From Eledone cirrhosa (Eukaryota): a stretch of 64,000 nt of DNA. Shown here one piece after another: positions 8,313 to 63,654 of the stretch (position 1 is its first letter; every line of letters starts with the position of its first letter). The notes under the pieces are model-generated. The model searched no databases. It was given only the letters and a program-made list of their open reading frames with translations, and was not told the DNA's origin. Position numbers and translations under genes: made by a program. The stretch lies in the NCBI GenBank assembly GCA_964016885.1, contig OZ024749.1, positions 26,722,001 through 26,786,000 on the forward strand, written 5' to 3'.

Positions 8313-8370
<58 letters not shown>

Positions 8371-8374
<4 letters not shown>

Positions 8375-8935
8375 CAAATAACGAAACGAAATTAAATTTC
8401 GTTTCGTTTGTAACTCACTTTTGTATGACTGACGCTTAAACAATTAAGTTAAAGATGTACATCCATATATGTATACTGAAATACTAGTATGTATATGAAT
8501 ACACACACGTATACATATGTAGATGTACCAAGTTTTTTCACTGGTCACTTTACTGTGAGTGGCCAGCTATTCTGTATGTAAACACACAGACAAACCGGTT
8601 TTTAGAGTCATACTGGTTTTTGAGGAAACACCTTTCCTCTATTCTCCAGAAAGGCCGGAAGATAGGTAAATATTGCTGATGAGTTGTAACAACAACGAAA
8701 CTAGTTCAATATTCCTTGTCTGGCTTTCTGTAGAATAGAGGAAAGGTGTTTCCTCAAAAACCAGTATGACTCTAAAAACCGGTTTGTCTGTGTGTTTACA
8801 TACAGAATAGCTGGCCACTCACAGTAAAGTGACCAGTGAAAAAACTTGGTACATCTACATATGTATACGTGTGTGTATTCATATACATACTAGTATTTCA
8901 GTATACATATATGGATGTACATCTTTAACTTAATT

Positions 8936-8940
<5 letters not shown>
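8371..8940. mobile_element. Diverged solo palindromic copy of the 12.6-17.8 kb array unit
   Basis: ~220-bp inverted arms (8437-8660 / 8716-8938), homologous to the array unit, flanked by (TA)n. Confidence 0.9.
8670..8712 (+). ncRNA. Minimal type I hammerhead ribozyme (family B variant)
   Basis: atattg-CTGATGA-gttgt-aaca-acaac-GAAAC-TA-GTT-caatat. Confidence 0.85.
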
Positions 8941-12077: not shown

Positions 12078-12162
12078 ATATTTTTTTTTTATATATTATA
12101 TATATATTATATATATATTATATATATATATATATTATATAATGTATATATATTATAAAGAA

Positions 12163-12477
12163 GAGAGACGGTTTTAAATGTACATCCTCTGTTTATTATA
12201 TAACCATGGTGTACGTATTTCAAAGACGTAAAAATGATTACATAATAACCCTTTGATGTGTTCTCTTCAGACATGTGAAAAGTTGTGGTGTTTTGTTTTT
12301 GATATGCTACCACAACACTAATAACTACAGTAGCATATCAAAAACAAAACACCACAACTTTACACCCGTCTGAGGAGAACACGTCAAAGGGTTATTAAGT
12401 AATCACTTTGACATCTTTGAAATGCCTATAAGAGGATTATATAATAAATAGAGGATGTACATTTAAAACCATCTCTC
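12163..12477. mobile_element. Imperfect fold-back element with a hammerhead-like core in each arm
   Basis: Arms 12163-12310 / 12330-12477. Plus strand: CTGAGGA(12370)...gtcaaag...ctttgac...TGAAA. Minus strand: CTGAAGA...TGAAA-tacgta. Confidence 0.65.
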
Positions 12478-12754
12478 TTTATATAATATCGACACTCCGG
12501 TTAATACCTTATTGATAATACTCTAAGGAATAGTGAGTTACGTCTGTTTACGACAAAAGTCGGCGGATTAGCTAATTTCCTTAATTGAATAATATATATA
12601 AATATATAAATATACATATATATATATATATAGAAAAACGAATAACGAAACGAAATTAAATTTCGTTTCGCTTCTAACTCACTTTTGTATGACTGACGCT
12701 TAAACAATTAAGTTAAAGTGTACATCTATATATGTATACGGAAGTATCAGTAAG

Positions 12755-12836
<82 letters not shown>

Positions 12837-12993
12837 CACATATGTATACATATGCACATGTACCGAGCTTTTCACTAGACACTTTACAGTGAGTGTCCAG
12901 CTAGTCTGTATGTAAACAGACGAACCGGGTTTTAGAGTCATACGAGTTTTCAAGGAAACACATTTCCTCTATTCTCCAGAGAGCCAGACAGGA

Positions 12994-13036
12994 ATATTGG
13001 ACTAGTTTCGATGTTATTACATCTCATCAGCAATAT
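12994..13036 (-). ncRNA. Hammerhead ribozyme, array copy 1
   Basis: atattg-CTGATGA-gatgt-aata-acatc-GAAAC-TA-GTC-caatat. Confidence 0.88.
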
Positions 13037-13293
13037 ATACCTATCTTTCCGGCTTCTCTGGAGAATTGTAAAAGCACATATCGTTATATGCTTTTTCTAT
13101 GAAAATCAGTAGTGGGCAGACTAATTTGCATAGAACGTGAGTCATTGTACGCACCGGTTCAGCGGAAACGATAAAAACGAATAACGAAACGAAATTAAAT
13201 TTCGTTTCGCTTCTAACTCACTTTTGTATGACTGACGCTTAAACAATTAAGTTAAAGTGTACATCTATATATGTATACGGAAGTATCAGTATG

Positions 13294-13387
<94 letters not shown>

Positions 13388-13544
13388 CACATATGTATAC
13401 ATATGCACATGTACCGAGCTTTTCACTAGACACTTTACAGTGAGTGTCCAGCTAGTCTGTATGTAAACAGACGAACCGGGTTTTAGAGTCATACGAGTTT
13501 TCAAGGAAACACATTTCCTCTATTCTCCAGAGAGCCAGACAGGA

Positions 13545-13587
13545 ATATTGGACTAGTTTCGATGTTATTACATCTCATCAGCAATAT
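13545..13587 (-). ncRNA. Hammerhead ribozyme, array copy 2
   Basis: Identical motif to copy 1. Confidence 0.88.
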
Positions 13588-13890
13588 ATACCTATCTTTC
13601 CGGCTTCTCTGGAGAATTGTAAAAGCACATATCGTTATATGCTTTTTCTATGAAAATCATAGATGTACACTTTAACTTAATTGTTTAAGCGTCAGTCATA
13701 CAAAAGTGAGTTAGAAGCGAAACGAAATTTAATTTCGTTTCGTTATTCGTTTTTATCGTTTCCGCTGAACCGGTGCGTACAATGACTCACGTTCTATGCA
13801 AATTAGTCTGCCCACTACTGATTTTCATAGAAAAAGCATATAACGATATGTGCTTTTACAATTCTCCAGAGAAGCCGGAAAGATAGGTAT

Positions 13891-13933
13891 ATATTGCTGA
13901 TGAGATGTAATAACATCGAAACTAGTCCAATAT
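13891..13933 (+). ncRNA. Hammerhead ribozyme, array copy 3
   Basis: atattg-CTGATGA-gatgt-aata-acatc-GAAAC-TA-GTC-caatat. Confidence 0.88.
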
Positions 13934-14090
13934 TCCTGTCTGGCTCTCTGGAGAATAGAGGAAATGTGTTTCCTTGAAAACTCGTATGACTCTAAAACCC
14001 GGTTCGTCTGTTTACATACAGACTAGCTGGACACTCACTGTAAAGTGTCTAGTGAAAAGCTCGGTACATGTGCATATGTATACATATGTG

Positions 14091-14160
<70 letters not shown>

Positions 14161-14417
14161 CATACTGATACTTCCGTATACATATATAGATGTACACTTT
14201 AACTTAATTGTTTAAGCGTCAGTCATACAAAAGTGAGTTAGAAGCGAAACGAAATTTAATTTCGTTTCGTTATTCGTTTTTATCGTTTCCGCTGAACCGG
14301 TGCGTACAATGACTCACGTTCTATGCAAATTAGTCTGCCCACTACTGATTTTCATAGAAAAAGCATATAACGATATGTGCTTTTACAATTCTCCAGAGAA
14401 GCCGGAAAGATAGGTAT

Positions 14418-14460
14418 ATATTGCTGATGAGATGTAATAACATCGAAACTAGTCCAATAT
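14418..14460 (+). ncRNA. Hammerhead ribozyme, array copy 4
   Basis: Identical motif. Confidence 0.88.
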
Positions 14461-14617
14461 TCCTGTCTGGCTCTCTGGAGAATAGAGGAAATGTGTTTCC
14501 TTGAAAACTCGTATGACTCTAAAACCCGGTTCGTCTGTTTACATACAGACTAGCTGGACACTCACTGTAAAGTGTCTAGTGAAAAGCTCGGTACATGTGC
14601 ATATGTATACATATGTG

Positions 14618-14695
<78 letters not shown>

Positions 14696-14952
14696 CATAC
14701 TGATACTTCCGTATACATATATAGATGTACACTTTAACTTAATTGTTTAAGCGTCAGTCATACAAAAGTGAGTTAGAAGCGAAACGAAATTTAATTTCGT
14801 TTCGTTATTCGTTTTTATCGTTTCCGCTGAACCGGTGCGTACAATGACTCACGTTCTATGCAAATTAGTCTGCCCACTACTGATTTTCATAGAAAAAGCA
14901 TATAACGATATGTGCTTTTACAATTCTCCAGAGAAGCCGGAAAGATAGGTAT

Positions 14953-14995
14953 ATATTGCTGATGAGATGTAATAACATCGAAACTAGTCCAATAT
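14953..14995 (+). ncRNA. Hammerhead ribozyme, array copy 5
   Basis: Identical motif. Confidence 0.88.
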
Positions 14996-15152
14996 TCCTG
15001 TATGGCTCTCTGGAGAATAGAGGAAATGTGTTTCCTTGAAAACTCGTATGACTCTAAAACCCGGTTCGTCTGTTTACATACAGACTAGCTGGACACTCAC
15101 TGTAAAGTGTCTAGTGAAAAGCTCGGTACATGTGCATATGTATACATATGTG

Positions 15153-15232
<80 letters not shown>

Positions 15233-15489
15233 CATACTGATACTTCCGTATACATATATAGATGTACACTTTAACTTAATTGTTTAAGCGTCAGTCATAC
15301 AAAAGTGAGTTAGAAGCGAAACGAAATTTAATTTCGTTTCGTTATTCGTTTTTATCGTTTCCGCTGAACCGGTGCGTACAATGACTCACGTTCTATGCAA
15401 ATTAGTCTGCCCACTACTGATTTTCATAGAAAAAGCATATAACGATATGTGCTTTTACAATTCTCCAGAGAAGCCGGAAAGATAGGTAT

Positions 15490-15532
15490 ATATTGCTGAT
15501 GAGATGTAATAACATCGAAACTAGTCCAATAT
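15490..15532 (+). ncRNA. Hammerhead ribozyme, array copy 6
   Basis: Identical motif. Confidence 0.88.
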
Positions 15533-15689
15533 TCCTGTATGGCTCTCTGGAGAATAGAGGAAATGTGTTTCCTTGAAAACTCGTATGACTCTAAAACCCG
15601 GTTCGTCTGTTTACATACAGACTAGCTGGACACTCACTGTAAAGTGTCTAGTGAAAAGCTCGGTACATGTGCATATGTATACATATGTG

Positions 15690-15735
<46 letters not shown>

Positions 15736-15784
15736 CATACTGATACTTCCGTATACATATATAGATGTACACTTTAACTTAATT

Positions 15785-15836
<52 letters not shown>

Positions 15837-16084
15837 AATTAAGTTAAAGTGTACATCTATATATGTATACGGAAGTATCAGTATGCATACATATTTATAT
15901 GTATATATATATATATATATATAAATACACATATGTATACATATGCACATGTACCGAGCTTTTCACTAGACACTTTACAGTGAGTGTCCAGCTAGTCTGT
16001 ATGTAAACAGACGAACCGGGTTTTAGAGTCATACGAGTTTTCAAGGAAACACATTTCCTCTATTCTCCAGAGAGCCAGACAGGA

Positions 16085-16127
16085 ATATTGGACTAGTTTC
16101 GATGTTATTACATCTCATCAGCAATAT
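16085..16127 (-). ncRNA. Hammerhead ribozyme, array copy 7
   Basis: Identical motif on the minus strand. Confidence 0.88.
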
Positions 16128-16430
16128 ATACCTATCTTTCCGGCTTCTCTGGAGAATTGTAAAAGCACATATCGTTATATGCTTTTTCTATGAAAATCAG
16201 TAGTGGGCAGACTAATTTGCATAGAACGTGAGTCATTGTACGCACCGGTTCAGCGGAAACGATAAAAACGAATAACGAAACGAAATTAAATTTCGTTTCG
16301 CTTCTAACTCACTTTTGTATGACTGACGCTTAAACAATTAAGTTAAAGTGTACATCTATGATTTTCATAGAAAAAGCATATAACGATATGTGCTTTTACA
16401 ATTCTCCAGAGAAGCCGGAAAGATAGGTAT

Positions 16431-16473
16431 ATATTGCTGATGAGATGTAATAACATCGAAACTAGTCCAATAT
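16431..16473 (+). ncRNA. Hammerhead ribozyme, array copy 8
   Basis: Identical motif. Confidence 0.88.
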
Positions 16474-16634
16474 TCCTGTCTGGCTCTCTGGAGAATAGAG
16501 GAAATGTGTTTCCTTGAAAACTCGTATGACTCTAAAACCCGGTTCGTCTGTTTACATACAGACTAGCTGGACACTCACTGTAAAGTGTCTAGTGAAAAGC
16601 TCGGTACATGTGCATATGTATACATATGTGTATT

Positions 16635-16716
<82 letters not shown>

Positions 16717-16973
16717 CATACTGATACTTCCGTATACATATATAGATGTACACTTTAACTTAATTGTTTAAGCGTCAGTCATACAAAAGTGAGTTAGAAG
16801 CGAAACGAAATTTAATTTCGTTTCGTTATTCGTTTTTATCGTTTCCGCTGAGCCGGTGCGTACAATGACTCACGTTCTATGCAAATTAGTCTGCCCACTA
16901 CTGATTTTCATAGAAAAAGCATATAACGATATGTGCTTTTACAATTCTCCAGAGAAGCCGGAAAGATAGGTAT

Positions 16974-17016
16974 ATATTGCTGATGAGATGTAATAACATC
17001 GAAACTAGTCCAATAT
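16974..17016 (+). ncRNA. Hammerhead ribozyme, array copy 9
   Basis: Identical motif. Confidence 0.88.
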
Positions 17017-17173
17017 TCCTGTCTGGCTCTCTGGAGAATAGAGGAAATGTGTTTCCTTGAAAACTCGTATGACTCTAAAACCCGGTTCGTCTGTTTACAT
17101 ACAGACTAGCTGGACACTCACTGTAAAGTGTCTAGTGAAAAGCTCGGTACATGTGCATATGTATACATATGTG

Positions 17174-17255
<82 letters not shown>

Positions 17256-17512
17256 CATACTGATACTTCCGTATACATATATAGATGTACACTTTAACTT
17301 AATTGTTTAAGCGTCAGTCATACAAAAGTGAGTTAGAAGCGAAACGAAATTTAATTTCGTTTCGTTATTCGTTTTTATCGTTTCCGCTGAACCGGTGCGT
17401 ACAATGACTCACGTTCTATGCAAATTAGTCTGCCCACTACAGATTTTCATAGAAAAAGCATATAACGATATGTGCTTTTACAATTCTCCAGAGAAGCCGG
17501 AAAGATAGGTAT

Positions 17513-17555
17513 ATATTGATGATGAGATGTAATAACATCGAAACTAGTCCAATAT
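17513..17555 (+). ncRNA. Hammerhead ribozyme, array copy 10, core mutated (C3A)
   Basis: atattg-ATGATGA-gatgt...; otherwise identical to the other copies. Confidence 0.75.
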
Positions 17556-17712
17556 TCCTGTATGGCTCTCTGGCGAATAGAGGAAATGTGTTTCCTTGAA
17601 AACTCGTATGACTCTAAAACCCGGTTCGTCTGTTTACATACAGACTAGCTGGACACTCACTGTAAAGTGTCTAGTGAAAAGCTCGGTACATGTGCATATG
17701 TATACATATGTG

Positions 17713-17752
<40 letters not shown>

Positions 17753-17801
17753 CATACTGATACTTCCGTATACATATATAGATGTACACTTTAACTTAAT
17801 T

Positions 17802-17877
<76 letters not shown>

Positions 17878-18479
17878 AATGTATTTTTGTTAATCGCTTG
17901 TTAAATGCAAGGACCCCATTCAATCATTACCTTCTAGCTAGCGTATTTTCAAACCTTAATTCCTAACGTATTTTCAAACCTCAATCCCTAATTCTAGCGT
18001 ATCTTCAAAACAAAAAAAAACAAAATCCTTTCCTTCTTCCTTCTTCGAAGGCATGGGGTGGTCAAACGCCTAACACACACAACCATCATGCGCCCCCCCC
18101 CCCCTATCTCTATATATATATATATATGATAGGAATTCACTTCGCCAAATTTCATTGCTTGCTGTCTCGACTCCACGATATTCATGTAACGTAATGTACA
18201 GATTTCATTTCTCTCCCTCCACAAATCCTAATTCTAGCGTATTTTAATTCTAATTCTAGCAAATCCTAATTCTAGCGTATTTTAATTCTAATTCTAGCGT
18301 ATTCCATATTTCGTATCGTCCAAATAGCCAATCTATCGCTAAAACAAACTACATTTTCTGTTTCTATTAATTGTTAAATACGAAAGTTTTTGGTCGTATT
18401 CAACAGAACAAATTTTGTATTTTTGTTAATCGCTTGTTAAATGCAAGGACCCCATTCAATCATTACCTTCTAGCTAGCT

Positions 18480-21400
18480 ACCCAACACCCCTCCCCCCTA
18501 CCCCCACCCCCACGCACCACCATTGCTATTACGTGGACCAATCATAAAACAGAGCCCCCACGCATCACCAGTATTATTACGCGGACCAATCAGAAGCCAG
18601 AGGCCTATACTATCGCTTGCCTGGTTGCCTTTCAATATGATGGATGGATGGACTGCGGAATCCTGGAGAGTGGAGGAGAGAGAGAGAAAAATCTGGACGC
18701 TCAGCGACAATGCCAAAGATAAAGACAAATTCACCTCTTGGACGAGAATGCGAGCACTCCTCATTGTTTCGACCGCGGACGGCTAACATAACCCCATCGC
18801 CCCCCGCCCCCCACCGCCCCCAACCCCCAAACGCAATCCAAAACTTCAGAGTTGGTACCATAAATGTAGGCACCCTAAAGGGTCGCGCTAACGAGGTTGT
18901 AGAAATGCTTGAACGTAAGGAGGTCGATGTTTGTTGTATTCAAGAGACCAGGTGGAGGGGTGGGTCTGCTAGGTTCATTGAGGGTAAAAAACGATGTTAT
19001 AAGCTTTTCTGGGTGGGAAACGACGATGGGCTGGGTGGAGTAGGAATCATGGTAGCAGAAAAGTGGGCAGATAAGATAATAGACGTAAATAGAGTGAACG
19101 ACAGAATAATTAAAATACGACTTGTCCTCAATAGAACTACGGTGACAGTAATATCTGCGTACGCACCCCAATCCGGACTGCCCGGCACTATAAAAGACAG
19201 ATTCTATGAGACACTGATGCTAACTACCTCCCAAATATCCGACAGTGACTATATAATTATCGCAGGCGACCTAAATGGTCACGTTGGACAACATTGTGAC
19301 GGCTACGACGAAATCCATGGAGGCTATGGGTTTGGTACTAGAAATGAGGAAGGCTCCAGAATCCTGGAATTCTGTGATGCAAATAACCTAACTATCTGTA
19401 ACACTAACTTCAAAAAACGTGACAATCACCTGATCACCTATAGATCCGGGGAACACACAAGCCAGGTAGATTATATCCTTACCAGAAGACGTGACAGAGT
19501 GTCTGTTGTAAACACTAAATCCCTCCCCCATGAAGAATGCACCTCCCAACATAGACTGATAATTAGCGACCTCATAGTCAGGACGAGACGTACTCGACAG
19601 CAGAAGAGGACTATCCTCAGGAGAAAAATATGGAAGCTAAAGGACCCCACAGCCAGGAATAAATTTCAAAGCATATTACTTGATGCTTTCGACAGTAAGG
19701 AAGAACATTTAGAGTCGGACAATATAGAGGGAGAGTGGGAATTTCTGAAAGCAAACCTGCTGTTGGCGACAGACGAAGTCTGTGGCTGGAGCAGGCCTGT
19801 AGGCAGGAGGAGAGTAACATGGTGGTGGAACAGTAAGGTGGAGGGGTCAATTAAGGCCAAAAAGCAGGCTTGGAAAGTATGGCGGGATGGGGGAAGTAGA
19901 GAGGACTATCAAGTGGCCAGGAGGGAAGCTAGGAGACAAGTGTACTTAGCAAGAAGGGAAGCTGAGGAAAGAAAGTTCAAGCATGTTCTACAACGCGATG
20001 ACCAAAAACGTGAGGTGTTCAGGATTGCTAGGCAATGCGTCAAGGAAAACCGTGATATTGTCGGGGAGAAGTGTGTACTAAACGACGATGGCACACTTGC
20101 CATCACCGACGCTGATAAGAAGGTAGCTTGGAAGTGTCACTATGAAAGGCTACAAAATGAGGAGAATAAATGGGAGAAAGACAGTCTCCCCCATATCGAC
20201 CCAATAGAGGGACCAGCAGTGTTAGTCGAGGGGAGTATAATAAGTAAGGCAATCAAGGATATGAAGACGGGTAAGGCGGCTGGGCCTTCGGAAATAGTTG
20301 CTGAGATGCTGAAGGCATCTGGCACGGTGGGACACACCATGGTCACCCGCATAGTTAACCAAGTCGTACAGAATGGGGTTGTTCCGAAGGACTGGCATAG
20401 CAGCATCATCGTTAACTGTTATAAGGGTAAAGGAGACGCCCTCGATAGGAGTAACTATAGAGGCATTAAATTAATCGACCAGGTCATGAAGGTCACGGAA
20501 AAAGTAATAGCGCAACTAATCAGAGAGAGAATTGACCTAGATGAAATGCAGTTCGGGTTTGTGTCAGGCAAAAGTACCACAGACGCTCTTTTCATAGTAC
20601 GACAACTACAGGAGAAGTACCTAGCTACAGGTAAGCCCCTCTACTTAGCTTTTGTCGACTTGGAGAAAGCCTTCGACAGAGTCCCCCGCTCCATTATCTG
20701 GTGGGCTCTTAGAAAACTAGGCGTTGACGAATGGCTTGTGAGGGCTATACAAGCCATGTATAAAGAAACAGTCAGCAAGGTTAGAATTAACAACGAATAT
20801 AGTGAAGAGTTTAGCGTAAAAGTTGGCATCCATCAGGGCTCTGTTCTCAGCCCACTACTATTTATTATTGCCCTTCAGGCTATAACAGAGGAGTTCAAGA
20901 CAGGCTGCCCATGGGAACTCCTATACGCAGACGACCTGACACTCATAGCGGAATCAATGGCCGAGCTAGAGAAGAAATTCCAAACATGGAAGCACGTCCT
21001 AGAGTCAAAAGGACTTAAAATTAACCTGGCTAAGACCAAAGTACTAGTTTGTAGGAAAGAAAACAAGGCGGCGGTCCCTTCTGGGAAATGGTCGTGCTCG
21101 GTGTGTAGGAAAGGCGTAGGTAGAAACTCCATTTTATGTCCTAAATGCAAAGTATGGGTGCATAAAAGATGTAGTGGGATCACAGGTAAGCTAACTAAGA
21201 ACATAGATTTTACATGTGGCCGGTGCTCTGGTGCAATAAGTAGCAGCAAGTGCCCACAAAATACTAGCTCTTTCAATTGCGCAGAGGGTTCTATAGAAAT
21301 AGTGGACAGCTTCCGTTACCTGGGCGATAAAATCAGCAGTGGGGGAGGGTGCTCTGAAAGTACTGTAGCTAGAGTCAGAACTGGTTGGAAAAAGTTCAGA

Positions 21401-22275
21401 GAGCTTATACCACTATTAGCTGCTAAAGGGTTCTCACTAAAAATGAAAGGCAGGTTGTACGATGCCTGCATACGAACAGCAATGCTGCATGGCAGTGAGA
21501 CCTGGGCATTGTGTGCAGAGGATATACGCAGACTAGAGAGGAACGAAGCTTGCATGCTCCGCTGGATGTGTAACAGTAATATACGTGAACGGCAAAGCAT
21601 AAACGAACTAAGGAAAAAATTAGAGATAAGAGGGATCAGATGTTGTTTACTCGAGAGAAGGCTACGTTGGTATGGACACGTGATGCGCATGAAAGTCGAC
21701 AGCTGTATAACAAAGTGCAGGGCAATAAAGATAGACGGTAGTCACGGAATAGGCAGACCTAGAAAAACCTGGGACGAGCTGATAAACTCCGACATCACAC
21801 ACTTACACCTCTCCAAGACAATGTCACTGGACCGAGACCTTTGGCGGTACTCAGTAACAGAGAAGACCCGCCTTACCTAAATATATAGTAAAACCTACTC
21901 CAGCCAGTAGGCATCTCTAACAAAATACACCCCGTCCCACCACCACCACCCCCTCCCCATCCACACCACCCCGTTCTATGTAAAGTTATGTTGGTGCCGC
22001 GCCATCGAGGCCGAAACAAATGAGATCGTGTAGGTGTCACGACAAAAAAACACACAGTCCACGCTGTAATGTGGCCGTGTAGGCAACACGGTAAAAACCT
22101 CCCAGACCCACACTGTAAATGTGGTTGGTGTTAGGAAGGGCATCCAACTGTAGAAAACCTGCCAGACAGTCCTATGCGAGCAAGACAATCACTCTTGCCT
22201 CAAGTGGGACTACCCCCGTCCAAACCCATGCAAGCGTGGAACACGGACGTTAAACGTTGATGATGATGATGATGA
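18480..22275 (+). mobile_element. Apparently full-length RTE LINE
   Basis: Single ORF, ~380-bp 3' UTR containing ggttggtgttaggaagggcatcca, and a (GAT)n tail at 22258-22275. The 5' boundary is approximate. Confidence 0.88.
18644..21880 (+). CDS. RTE-clade LINE ORF: APE endonuclease + reverse transcriptase + PHD-like finger
   Basis: Uninterrupted 1078 codons. APE motifs GTINVGTL, CIQETRW, AGDLNGHVG, SQVDYIL, SQHRL. RT motifs NYRGIKL, FVDLEKAFDRV, GIHQGSVLSPLLF, YADD. RTE C-terminus GSETW, RRLRWYGHV, GRPRKTW. The start may be the ATG at 18710. Confidence 0.96.
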   Translation: MDGLRNPGEWRREREKSGRSATMPKIKTNSPLGRECEHSSLFRPRTANITPSPPAPHRPQPPNAIQNFRVGTINVGTLKGRANEVVEMLERKEVDVCCIQETRWRGGSARFIEGKKRCYKLFWVGNDDGLGGVGIMVAEKWADKIIDVNRVNDRIIKIRLVLNRTTVTVISAYAPQSGLPGTIKDRFYETLMLTTSQISDSDYIIIAGDLNGHVGQHCDGYDEIHGGYGFGTRNEEGSRILEFCDANNLTICNTNFKKRDNHLITYRSGEHTSQVDYILTRRRDRVSVVNTKSLPHEECTSQHRLIISDLIVRTRRTRQQKRTILRRKIWKLKDPTARNKFQSILLDAFDSKEEHLESDNIEGEWEFLKANLLLATDEVCGWSRPVGRRRVTWWWNSKVEGSIKAKKQAWKVWRDGGSREDYQVARREARRQVYLARREAEERKFKHVLQRDDQKREVFRIARQCVKENRDIVGEKCVLNDDGTLAITDADKKVAWKCHYERLQNEENKWEKDSLPHIDPIEGPAVLVEGSIISKAIKDMKTGKAAGPSEIVAEMLKASGTVGHTMVTRIVNQVVQNGVVPKDWHSSIIVNCYKGKGDALDRSNYRGIKLIDQVMKVTEKVIAQLIRERIDLDEMQFGFVSGKSTTDALFIVRQLQEKYLATGKPLYLAFVDLEKAFDRVPRSIIWWALRKLGVDEWLVRAIQAMYKETVSKVRINNEYSEEFSVKVGIHQGSVLSPLLFIIALQAITEEFKTGCPWELLYADDLTLIAESMAELEKKFQTWKHVLESKGLKINLAKTKVLVCRKENKAAVPSGKWSCSVCRKGVGRNSILCPKCKVWVHKRCSGITGKLTKNIDFTCGRCSGAISSSKCPQNTSSFNCAEGSIEIVDSFRYLGDKISSGGGCSESTVARVRTGWKKFRELIPLLAAKGFSLKMKGRLYDACIRTAMLHGSETWALCAEDIRRLERNEACMLRWMCNSNIRERQSINELRKKLEIRGIRCCLLERRLRWYGHVMRMKVDSCITKCRAIKIDGSHGIGRPRKTWDELINSDITHLHLSKTMSLDRDLWRYSVTEKTRLT

Positions 22276-22282
22276 TATATAT

Positions 22283-22650
22283 ATGAAAAAGTTTGTCCTT
22301 CATCAGTGATCTTCCAACCATCATAGGCATTTCATCGCTTTAAAGACCATATACCTCCGGTTGGTGCGAGCAACGGCTAAAAAAAGTCGTTGGGACACGT
22401 AAATAAAGGGGACGCGAGGGTAAACAAACAAAATGGTGAAGCAACAGAAAGTGAGGAAGAAAGAGACAAGTCCCAGATTTCTATGAATTTAAATTCGGTG
22501 AAATCGTAAACGAGAGAATAAAGACCATCAAACCTGGTTGAAATGTGAGCAAGGAAGGAATTTCGCACAGGTCTAACGGGGGGAAGAAGGGGTCTGGTCT
22601 GCGAATTCGGTAAACATAAGTTCTGTGAAATCGTAGACGAGAGAGAAAAA
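22283..22650 (-). mobile_element. Family C repeat fragment (~610-640 bp unit)
   Basis: Reverse complement of 39170-39540. Confidence 0.85.
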
Positions 22651-32823: not shown

Positions 32824-32956
32824 TTAATATAGATGAGATTCTACAGGACTAGAACTGTTTCATTCTTTAGAAATCATCAGGAATCTCCTGAGATTCCTGA
32901 TGATTTCTAAAGAATGAAACAGTTCTAGTCCTGTAGAATCTCATCTATATTAAAAC
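32821..32956. repeat. Perfect ~66-bp-arm palindrome containing a hammerhead-like core on both strands
   Basis: Centre at ~32888. Plus strand: gagattc-CTGATGA(32897)-tttct-aa-agaa-TGAAAC-agttcta-GTC-ctgtagaatctc. Confidence 0.7.
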
Positions 32957-55234: not shown

Positions 55235-55244
55235 TAAGTATATA

Positions 55245-57371
55245 TTGAAATGTCCCCAGATGTATCTGACAGCACGGAGGAATTCCTCAGCAGAATCAGC
55301 GAAAGTAACCGATCTAGGGACCTAACAAACTGCATAATAGGTAGTATGGATGTTGTGTCCCTATATCCATCTATTGACGCGGATTTTGCTCGGGAGAAAT
55401 GCGTAGAAATGATCAGTAAGAGCAATGTTGAGTTCCGTGGGATTGATACCAGTGAGCTGGGACTCCTACTTAAACTTACCTATAGTAATGATTATCTAGA
55501 TACATATGACCTTAGCAACCTGTGCCCTACAAGACCAGCAAGAAGCAGACCACCTACCATTACCTCGATGGCCAACAAAACCCACACAGATAGATGGAAC
55601 GGGTGGACCAGAACCATACAGACCCCCGAAAATCACGATGAACTAAAGAAAATGATTGCACATGCGGTGGGGGGCCAACATAAAATTAACCCTTAAGGAA
55701 CATATGTTCAAATTTAATGGAAAAACATATGCCCAAGAGGAGGGAGGAGCCATTGGTGTTAGCATTGCAGGTGACATAGCTAACCTATTCATGGTATGGT
55801 GGGACAATAGACTTAAACTTAAACTTAAAGAACAATTAGAAGACCCCTTAACCCTGACAATGTACTCCCGCTACGTTGATGATATAAACATCGTAGTTAA
55901 AACACCCCCATTAGAGAACAGTCAGGAATTAGAGAAAAACACCATGGAAAGCATCCAGCAAATAGCTAACTCCATCCACCAGAGTATTAGAGTTACTATA
56001 GACTACACAAGCAAACACCCCAACTATCGATTACCTGTACTAGACACAGAGCTCTGGTTAGAAACCATTAATAACAAAAACAAATCCTCCATTCCCATTA
56101 TGCCAAACCCATGAGACTTCCAAACATCTGATCCACCGAAACTCAGCTGCTTCGGACCACACCAAAATCAACATACTGATTGCGGATTTGGTACGGGTGA
56201 TGAGAAACGTGTCGCGCATGTGCAACCCCGAAGAACTAGAGAGACATATACAACACTTCATCCACCGTATGCAGTTCTCTGGTTACAATCAGAGAGATAA
56301 AATCAGTGTATATAGAGGAGCCAGAACCAAATGGGAAAAAATGGTAAATAATGATACAAATGGGACCTGCCCCTTGTATAGGAGCAAATTTAGGAATAGA
56401 ATAGAAAGAACCAGGAATAAGGTTAATAGAATAAACTCATGGTGTGATAGCAATAAGTACCAGAGTGTAATGTTCATCAATATAACCCCTAGAGGTGAAT
56501 TAGCTTACAAATTTAGAAGGGCCTTAGATAAACATAAACTCAATATTAAGATAATAGAAAGACCAGGTACCTCCATAAAAACACTTATTAGCAATACATA
56601 CCCTTTTCAAAGACGTCTGTAAATTAAGCCCCCATATTAACCGTAAAACTAGAAATGTAATATATAGCATAAGATGTACTGAAGGACAATGTAGAGATAA
56701 AAATATAGTGTACATAGGTGAGACAGCTCGTAGTATAGGGGAACGGATAAATGAACACTGGCGAGACCTTCAAGATAGTAAAGAATCATCTGTACTCTAC
56801 CAACATGCTAAAATAGAACATAAGGGTAAATTAGAGAACATAGAAATAAAAATAGAATCTACACACAGAAAAGACGCAATGTTTAGACAAATCACAGAGG
56901 CAGTAAACATAAATGAACTCCAACCAAAATTAAATAGAAAACATGAATGGAATAGCAACATCACAACTTACAATTAAGGACAAAATGAAAACACACACAC
57001 ACATAGAACAAACAACCAACCAGTAACATGTAAATAAACAAATAAATAAACAAATATAAACACACACAGACACCCGGATGTAACACATGCGCAAACTAAG
57101 CACACAACACACACAAAAACAAGATGGCGTTGGACAGAACAAAGGAGAGGCACAAAAACAAAGAAAAGAATCCCCAGTCACTGAAGAGGTCACATAATGT
57201 GTGACGAAAAAACTTTGACAATATATGAACAATCGTCTGGTTGTGGAACCAACCAACCAACCAGAAATTTATAAATTCTTAAATTTATAAATTTAATTTA
57301 TAATAAATTGGAGTGAAAGCAACTGGTGCGTGTGTTTCTTATTGGCAACATGACCTTCTCAAAGCATATCA

Positions 57372-61693: not shown

Positions 61694-63515
<1,822 letters not shown>

Positions 63516-63553
63516 CATACATACATACATACATACATACATACATACATACA

Positions 63554-63585
<32 letters not shown>

Positions 63586-63594
63586 CATGTATAT

Positions 63595-63654
<60 letters not shown>

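Follow-up and report, generated by a model that had tools for sequence, protein, structure and literature searches.

The ribozyme array and its surroundings

The window, a stretch of 64,000 nucleotides from contig OZ024749.1 of Eledone cirrhosa, contains at 12634–17805 an array built from a unit of ~467 bp plus a variable TA tract and split into four arms, A to D. The features of the array and its surroundings are as follows, in coordinates of the window.

8368–8940: separate, older head-to-head insertion of the same ribozyme family; long end on the left and short end on the right, with a junction of its own
12634–13659, minus strand: arm A; begins at unit base 161; two units, both gtc; long 3' end of the family, running into (TA)n
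13645–13676, plus strand: junction J1; head-to-head, unit base 161 joined to unit base 3; breakpoint 13659/13660
13660–15788, plus strand: arm B; begins at unit base 3; two gtc units, then two gta units; short 3' end
13890–13936, plus strand: type I hammerhead core (example); ATATTG CTGATGA, stem II GATGT/ACATC, GAA, palindromic ACTAGT stem III, C, CAATAT
15789–15832: (TA)22; midpoint of a palindrome that lacks a spacer and has arms of ~550 bp (15258–15810 and 15811–16359)
15833–16359, minus strand: arm C; starts at unit base 3 as B; one gtc unit; private interrupted TA tract; short end
16342–16373, minus strand: junction J2; exact reverse complement of J1; breakpoint 16359/16360
16359–17805, plus strand: arm D; starts at unit base 161 as A; units gtc, gtc, gta; short end as B
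17880–22274, plus strand: young LINE, inserted in the TA tract at the end of D
22275–22290, plus strand: (AT)5GAAAAA; matches (AT)8AGAAAAA at 12617–12637
55238–56622, plus strand: candidate Penelope-type fragment
61694–63647, minus strand: candidate Penelope-type fragments; very abundant family, several copies as inverted pairs

Judged by its sequence, the array is a non-coding hammerhead-ribozyme repeat with putative self-cleavage. The core is present with intact stem I and stem II pairing in nine of the ten units; in D3 the core C is mutated, one of the private changes of this unit destroying C3 of the hammerhead. This form of the core has been described for animal ribozymes that act as dimers in tandem repeats (PMC4209133). 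The unit folds stably (z −6.8), the minimum-energy fold not being the active one. No stop-to-stop frame of at least 150 aa lies within 12634–17805, and Rfam returned no match at gathering score for the array repeat.

The array sits in the TA tract of another repeat family in the left flank, which ends in TTGAATA(TA)n and to which a near-perfect palindrome of 330 bp with an internal 32-bp hairpin at 12150–12600 belongs. As this repeat has TA at its end, its continuity across the site is uninformative. The LINE to the right, which we take to be RTE-like, has an intact ORF of 1079 aa (18641–21880) with endonuclease, PHD finger and RT. It also has a repeated 5' unit; its copies are 99–100% identical at the 5' end and some of them likewise start in TA. 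Among 382 ends of AT runs in the window only three are followed by GAAAAA, two of which (12632 and 22284) are the sites that bracket the array and the LINE. The (AT)nGAAAAA pair is thus a probable single duplicated target site, which probably took the array and then the LINE, in TA at the end of D. From their motifs, the fragments at 61694–63647 and 55238–56622 are presumably Penelope-type RT and GIY-YIG ORFs; Pfam gave no match for either.

The same joint occurs twice, in opposite orientation

Arms A and D start at unit base 161 and arms B and C at base 3, and the A|B and C|D joints are therefore exact reverse complements of each other. The original prediction had described this relation for joints at ~13660 and ~16358, and it is confirmed in the assembly: the 32-mers of J1 and J2 match exactly in inverted orientation, inside 754 nt of perfect inverted identity that extends 297 nt to one side and 457 nt to the other until the TA tracts differ. 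There is 1 nt of microhomology at J1, possibly as part of a microhomeology A[G]TAG/ATAG. A search of the whole 3.0-Gb assembly found the joint twice, both times at this locus, with no match elsewhere.

The data from reads speak neither for nor against J2. Contigs built from reads, which were filtered and maybe came from a different sample, skip the TA-rich part of 15835–16400, and no piece spans it. Among 24 of the 54 listed contig pieces (the longest were kept; again filtered, the sample maybe different), none crosses J2 at 16328–16391, and RAD reads, maybe not from the assembled individual, cover only the right side of J2 in this interval. Read depth in these filtered contigs was ~9 for single-copy sequence and 25,000 for the ribozyme family.

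B and C meet tail-to-tail in the palindrome centred on (TA)22. This tail-to-tail pattern was found at two sites genome-wide, the other of which joins two different subfamilies; the corresponding pattern of the older subfamily had no match in the genome. These counts are lower bounds, since the pattern overlooks locus L059, where the spacer is longer than allowed. At L059:2480–2610 (C1:62076000+) the last 29 nt of an arm, together with GAA of the target, are inverted across a TA tract. At L062:2589–2729 two insertions of different subfamilies are fused through the palindromic tail hairpin.

The units can be told apart by few differences. A gtc/gta variant had been said to mark copies 5, 6 and 10, and we find the C>A change at 15002, 15539 and 17562, that is, in units B3, B4 and D3. 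The variant base is found 3' of the ribozyme, which has the GTC of GAAACTAGTC as its cleavage triplet. The 27-mer with gta has four matches in the genome, three of which are B3, B4 and D3, the fourth lying in an older copy that is 92% identical; the gtc counterpart has 551. Private changes are found once each in A2, C, D1 and D2, and D3 has three more. Outside the TA tracts, C does not differ from B1 by any substitution, nor D1 from A1, and B4 and D3 are three substitutions and 6 nt of TA apart. The TA tracts measure 86 and 74 nt in A, 62, 70, 72 and 38 nt in B, 34 nt in C, and 78, 74 and 32 nt in D; the TA variant of C is unique in the genome.

Insertions of the same family elsewhere in the genome

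The motif of the long end has at least 2000 matches in the genome. DNA matching gave 121 matches from the best 40 of 815 candidates, and we examined 48 other loci, 32 taken from the best DNA matches and 16 from pattern matches or re-fetched. They were not picked for shape, yet are biased towards close relatives. At 33 of the 48 the two outer ends were callable and lay on opposite strands, indicating an inverted arm; the other 15 were left out (13 with one end called, one with none, and L062 as two fused insertions). A short end (core base 22–28) is paired with a long end (base 93–97, immediately after a perfect hairpin) at 32 of these 33 two-armed loci, for which the binomial p under free choice of ends is 4e-9. 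The sole exception, L048, is short/short and has no doubled junction. Nearly all called ends run into TA repeats. A normal insertion thus consists of two arms head-to-head in (TA)n, with one short end, one end that is 70 nt longer, and its own joint. The pairing of ends suggests that the two priming events are coordinated.

At 36 of 37 other loci we called 43 strand-switch points, about six of which are false calls at internal palindromes. No two of them share a central 24-mer and none shares one with J1, so that among 45 called points the only shared pair is J1 and J2 of the array. This bears out the earlier argument that independent events would rarely produce one joint. Among locus-private variants compared at 28 loci, 13 are present in all covered units of both arms, 136 in a single unit and 12 in some units, a distribution that fits copying of both arms from one template type. 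As to an autonomous partner, none with a matching end emerged from one Penelope-like family, whose 3' region is unrelated at 30 loci.

These ends change the reading of the array borders. The block ends at 15787, 15832 and 17805 and the solo copy at 8938 do stop at the same base, ...AATTGTTT|(TA)n, as had been noted; the motif starts at 8932, 15781 and 17798 on the plus strand and at 15826 on the minus strand. The fourth block end (arm A, 12634) is the long end of the family, just past the GAAACGAAAT hairpin and 70 nt beyond the short end of B, C and D. The shared base might be taken as a sign of a common template. We reject this use of it: because the base is the standard short 3' end family-wide, it is uninformative on the template. 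The short TA tract was likewise discarded as a marker of descent for B4, C and D3, as the terminal units at short ends are also the shortest at L007, L011 and L021. In the young, TA-expanded subfamily the shortest TA tract belongs to the unit beside the short end at four of four loci (these three and the array).

Origin of the second joint

By its layout, A|B is one ordinary insertion of the family. It is long/short, as the family is, whereas C|D is short/short, unlike 32 of the 33 loci. Because the joint is reused, both ends are short and D ends in the gta variant of B, C|D would be a local derivative; the near-private gta unit in D3 (three of four genomic matches) indicates that the tail of D descends from B, while its head is that of A. 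We consider it probable that C|D arose when one Penelope-type retrozyme insertion was recently and locally duplicated in inverted orientation, through DNA fold-back after the insertion. A presumed Penelope-like protein would have nicked both strands of the (TA)n site and started reverse transcription from two set positions on the RNA, 70 nt from each other; the two cDNAs, joined head-to-head, would have given A|B, long at one end and short at the other. Later, a 3' end in the self-complementary TA tract to the right of B may have folded back, probably at what is now (TA)22 (15789–15832); alternatively, a new cDNA primed in this tract may have invaded B. Synthesis would then have run backwards through B, J1 and A, producing C, J2 and the start of D, until the strand re-annealed to B in forward orientation, which is possible because A and B are inverted copies, and finished the last unit of B and the right flank. 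Whole units would have been lost on the way, or the register slipped, leaving C with one unit instead of four. The outcome would be a 5-kb structure of the inverted-triplication type, which has no evident function. The inversion across the TA tract at L059 may be a miniature parallel of such a fold-back. Also in favour of this account are the restriction of the joint to this locus, the separate joint of each other locus, the palindrome centred on (TA)22, the mere two sites of the tail-to-tail pattern and the probable single target-site duplication around the whole; for the first step, priming of both strands at two start sites has been shown in vitro for a Penelope-like element (PMC11167929).

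Several observations do not sit easily with the fold-back. C is one gtc unit and not the mirror image (gta, gta, gtc, gtc) of B, so that the account also needs unit loss, a slip in register, deletion or conversion. No breakpoint of the switch from A to B can be seen in the near-identical units, and L048 is also short/short though it has no doubled junction. Long spacer-free palindromes are described as unstable (PMC10766186); the structure of the array must therefore be very young or not real.

It might not be real if the true allele were A|B and either a fold-back chimeric read or a mis-join of haplotypes via the inverted arms had made C|D. The same topology would result from a read that folded back at the TA tract and was joined again through the homology of A and B. 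C and D1 lack any substitution against B1 and A1 outside the TA tracts, and tandem and inverted structures of the Penelope type are a noted problem for assembly (PMC8557442). However, a chimeric read should mirror B, and C is one gtc unit with a TA variant that is unique in the genome. B4 and D3 would be one physical unit in such an artefact, yet three substitutions and 6 nt of TA set them apart. Were the allele flipped, the end of C should be long, but it is short, and the left flank occurs once at 100% among 40 scored matches, with no second haplotig seen. We therefore regard an artefact as unlikely. The explanation by two rounds of copying into the site from a mobile template that already had the inversion, be it an RNA made by read-through or a DNA intermediate with hairpin ends, appears very improbable. 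It would account for the exact identity of the joints, and a rolling-hairpin dimer would likewise set the two ends of B tail-to-tail. Against a copied template stand the restriction of the joint to this locus in the assembly, the lack of any recurring joint among the other loci, and the fact that neither two-armed block contains the other. A dimer further predicts a long end at the far right, and the far end of D has the variant and short end type of B, not the end of A. Of the two origins offered by the original prediction, duplication and inversion of the block is thus the best reading, as the genome search for the joint found it only here, the outcome for which the prediction itself had named a simple local inverted duplication.

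A retrotransposition event could also have been the trigger: a new cDNA with a short end, primed in TA to the right of B, would have made C from RNA and then switched to resident DNA, copying J1, A and the end of B. In C, gtc and the short end are those usual for the family, and the short first TA tract resembles that of fresh units at short ends elsewhere. Insertions also go into TA tracts that had served as targets before (L055, L062 and the LINE beside the array), and breaks made by L1 give fold-backs and inverted duplications (PMC11702581). Within this reading the adjacent young LINE, a possible source of a break, may instead have supplied it. No feature, however, separates a cDNA switch from a plain fold-back with register slip, RNA-to-DNA switching over >1 kb is required, and the fold-back at L059 includes target DNA and needs no RNA; we judge this trigger distinctly improbable. 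A broader proposal combines it with the pairing of ends: one Penelope-type complex would nearly always prime at both the long and the short site of a single retrozyme RNA, and at this locus a second priming would have switched from RNA to the resident insertion and copied it backwards, so that a retroelement built an inverted triplication. As a whole we hold this to be unlikely. Local fold-back of DNA after the insertion remains the account that we prefer.

Relation to known elements and rearrangements

A retrozyme insertion and an inverted duplication are both of known kinds. Like the non-LTR retrozymes described from animals, the array consists of non-coding tandem units with many dispersed copies, each unit having a type I hammerhead in which stem III is short and palindromic (Cervera and de la Pena, 2020, PMC7229834; Li et al., 2026, 10.64898/2026.07.22.740005). 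Non-LTR retrozymes are characterized as tandem non-coding units, proposed to derive from Penelope-like elements (10.64898/2026.07.22.740005), and in its tandem hammerhead units, its lack of coding sequence and its dispersed multi-copy distribution the family conforms, at the level of sequence, to this class. Unlike in the retrozyme descriptions, nearly all scorable insertions here have two arms that meet head-to-head, with fixed ends, one short and one long, in (TA)n; the word 'inverted' is absent from the main text of PMC7229834 and appears in 10.64898/2026.07.22.740005 only in the reference list.

Insertions of Penelope-like elements are reported to consist of partial tandems whose 5' end bears an inverted copy that is itself truncated 5', with a one-ended tail and TA targets (Craig et al., 2021, PMC8557442), and a Penelope-like protein cuts and extends both strands in vitro from a pair of start sites, one on either side of the tail (Frangieh et al., 2024, PMC11167929). 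The family shares the partial tandems, the inverted 5'-truncated copy (33 of 48 loci), the tail at one end (32 of 33) and the (TA)n target, as well as, by all appearances, two start sites around the tail and priming of both strands. It differs in having no ORF and in the length of the tail (~70 nt compared with 30–40). Its pairing of short and long ends is near-strict, whereas the in vitro work saw no difference in start site between the strands (PMC11167929), and the doubled junction is not part of the Penelope-like anatomy as described in these papers.

Inverted triplications are attributed to one switch inside a pair of inverted repeats, the palindrome arms shortening later (PMC11293582; PMC10766186). 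The array resembles DUP-TRP/INV-DUP and ODIRA structures, as presented in the same two papers, in having an inverted middle segment (C and J2) between direct copies, B and D ending in the shared gta unit and end type, and one palindromic fold-back junction; the one switch hidden in a pre-existing inverted repeat pair would here correspond to the head of A and tail of B in D. A later shortening of the palindrome arms would be a further point in common. Unlike them, it has gained only ~2 kb, all inside one retroposon insertion, the fold-back lies at a TA microsatellite with no spacer, and there is no origin or replication evidence. In twin priming by L1, as in our family, both target ends are primed and the cDNAs meet head-to-head with microhomology, and breaks associated with L1 can yield local inverted duplications by fold-back (PMC11702581). 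In L1 no more than ~10 bp of the RNA separate the two breakpoints, and inversion occurs in a minority of cases (PMC11702581); here, in contrast, the arms overlap by whole units and the two-armed insertion is the rule. Searches of the open-access literature brought up no report of a retrozyme array with a doubled junction.

Taken alone, the doubled joint carries little weight, being either a local rearrangement that happened once or an error of assembly. At least 2000 retrozyme insertion ends with a Penelope-like inverted arm and one-sided tail are evidence, in the form of footprints, that the machinery of Penelope-like elements moves animal retrozymes. The most useful by-product is the near-strict pairing of short and long ends, which places a countable constraint on the step that makes the inverted structures of Penelope elements.

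Other arrangements of hammerhead sequence were seen along the way. L057 (C1:95.62–95.68 Mb) contains a satellite of the ribozyme unit of more than 55 kb, which begins at the short end in TA. In the window, a hammerhead-like motif is present on both strands at 32880–32930, in a small inverted repeat. A more distant hammerhead family, ~75% alike and with a period of ~430 bp, is found at L055:4989–5320 and L078:40–600 and has a similar general layout.
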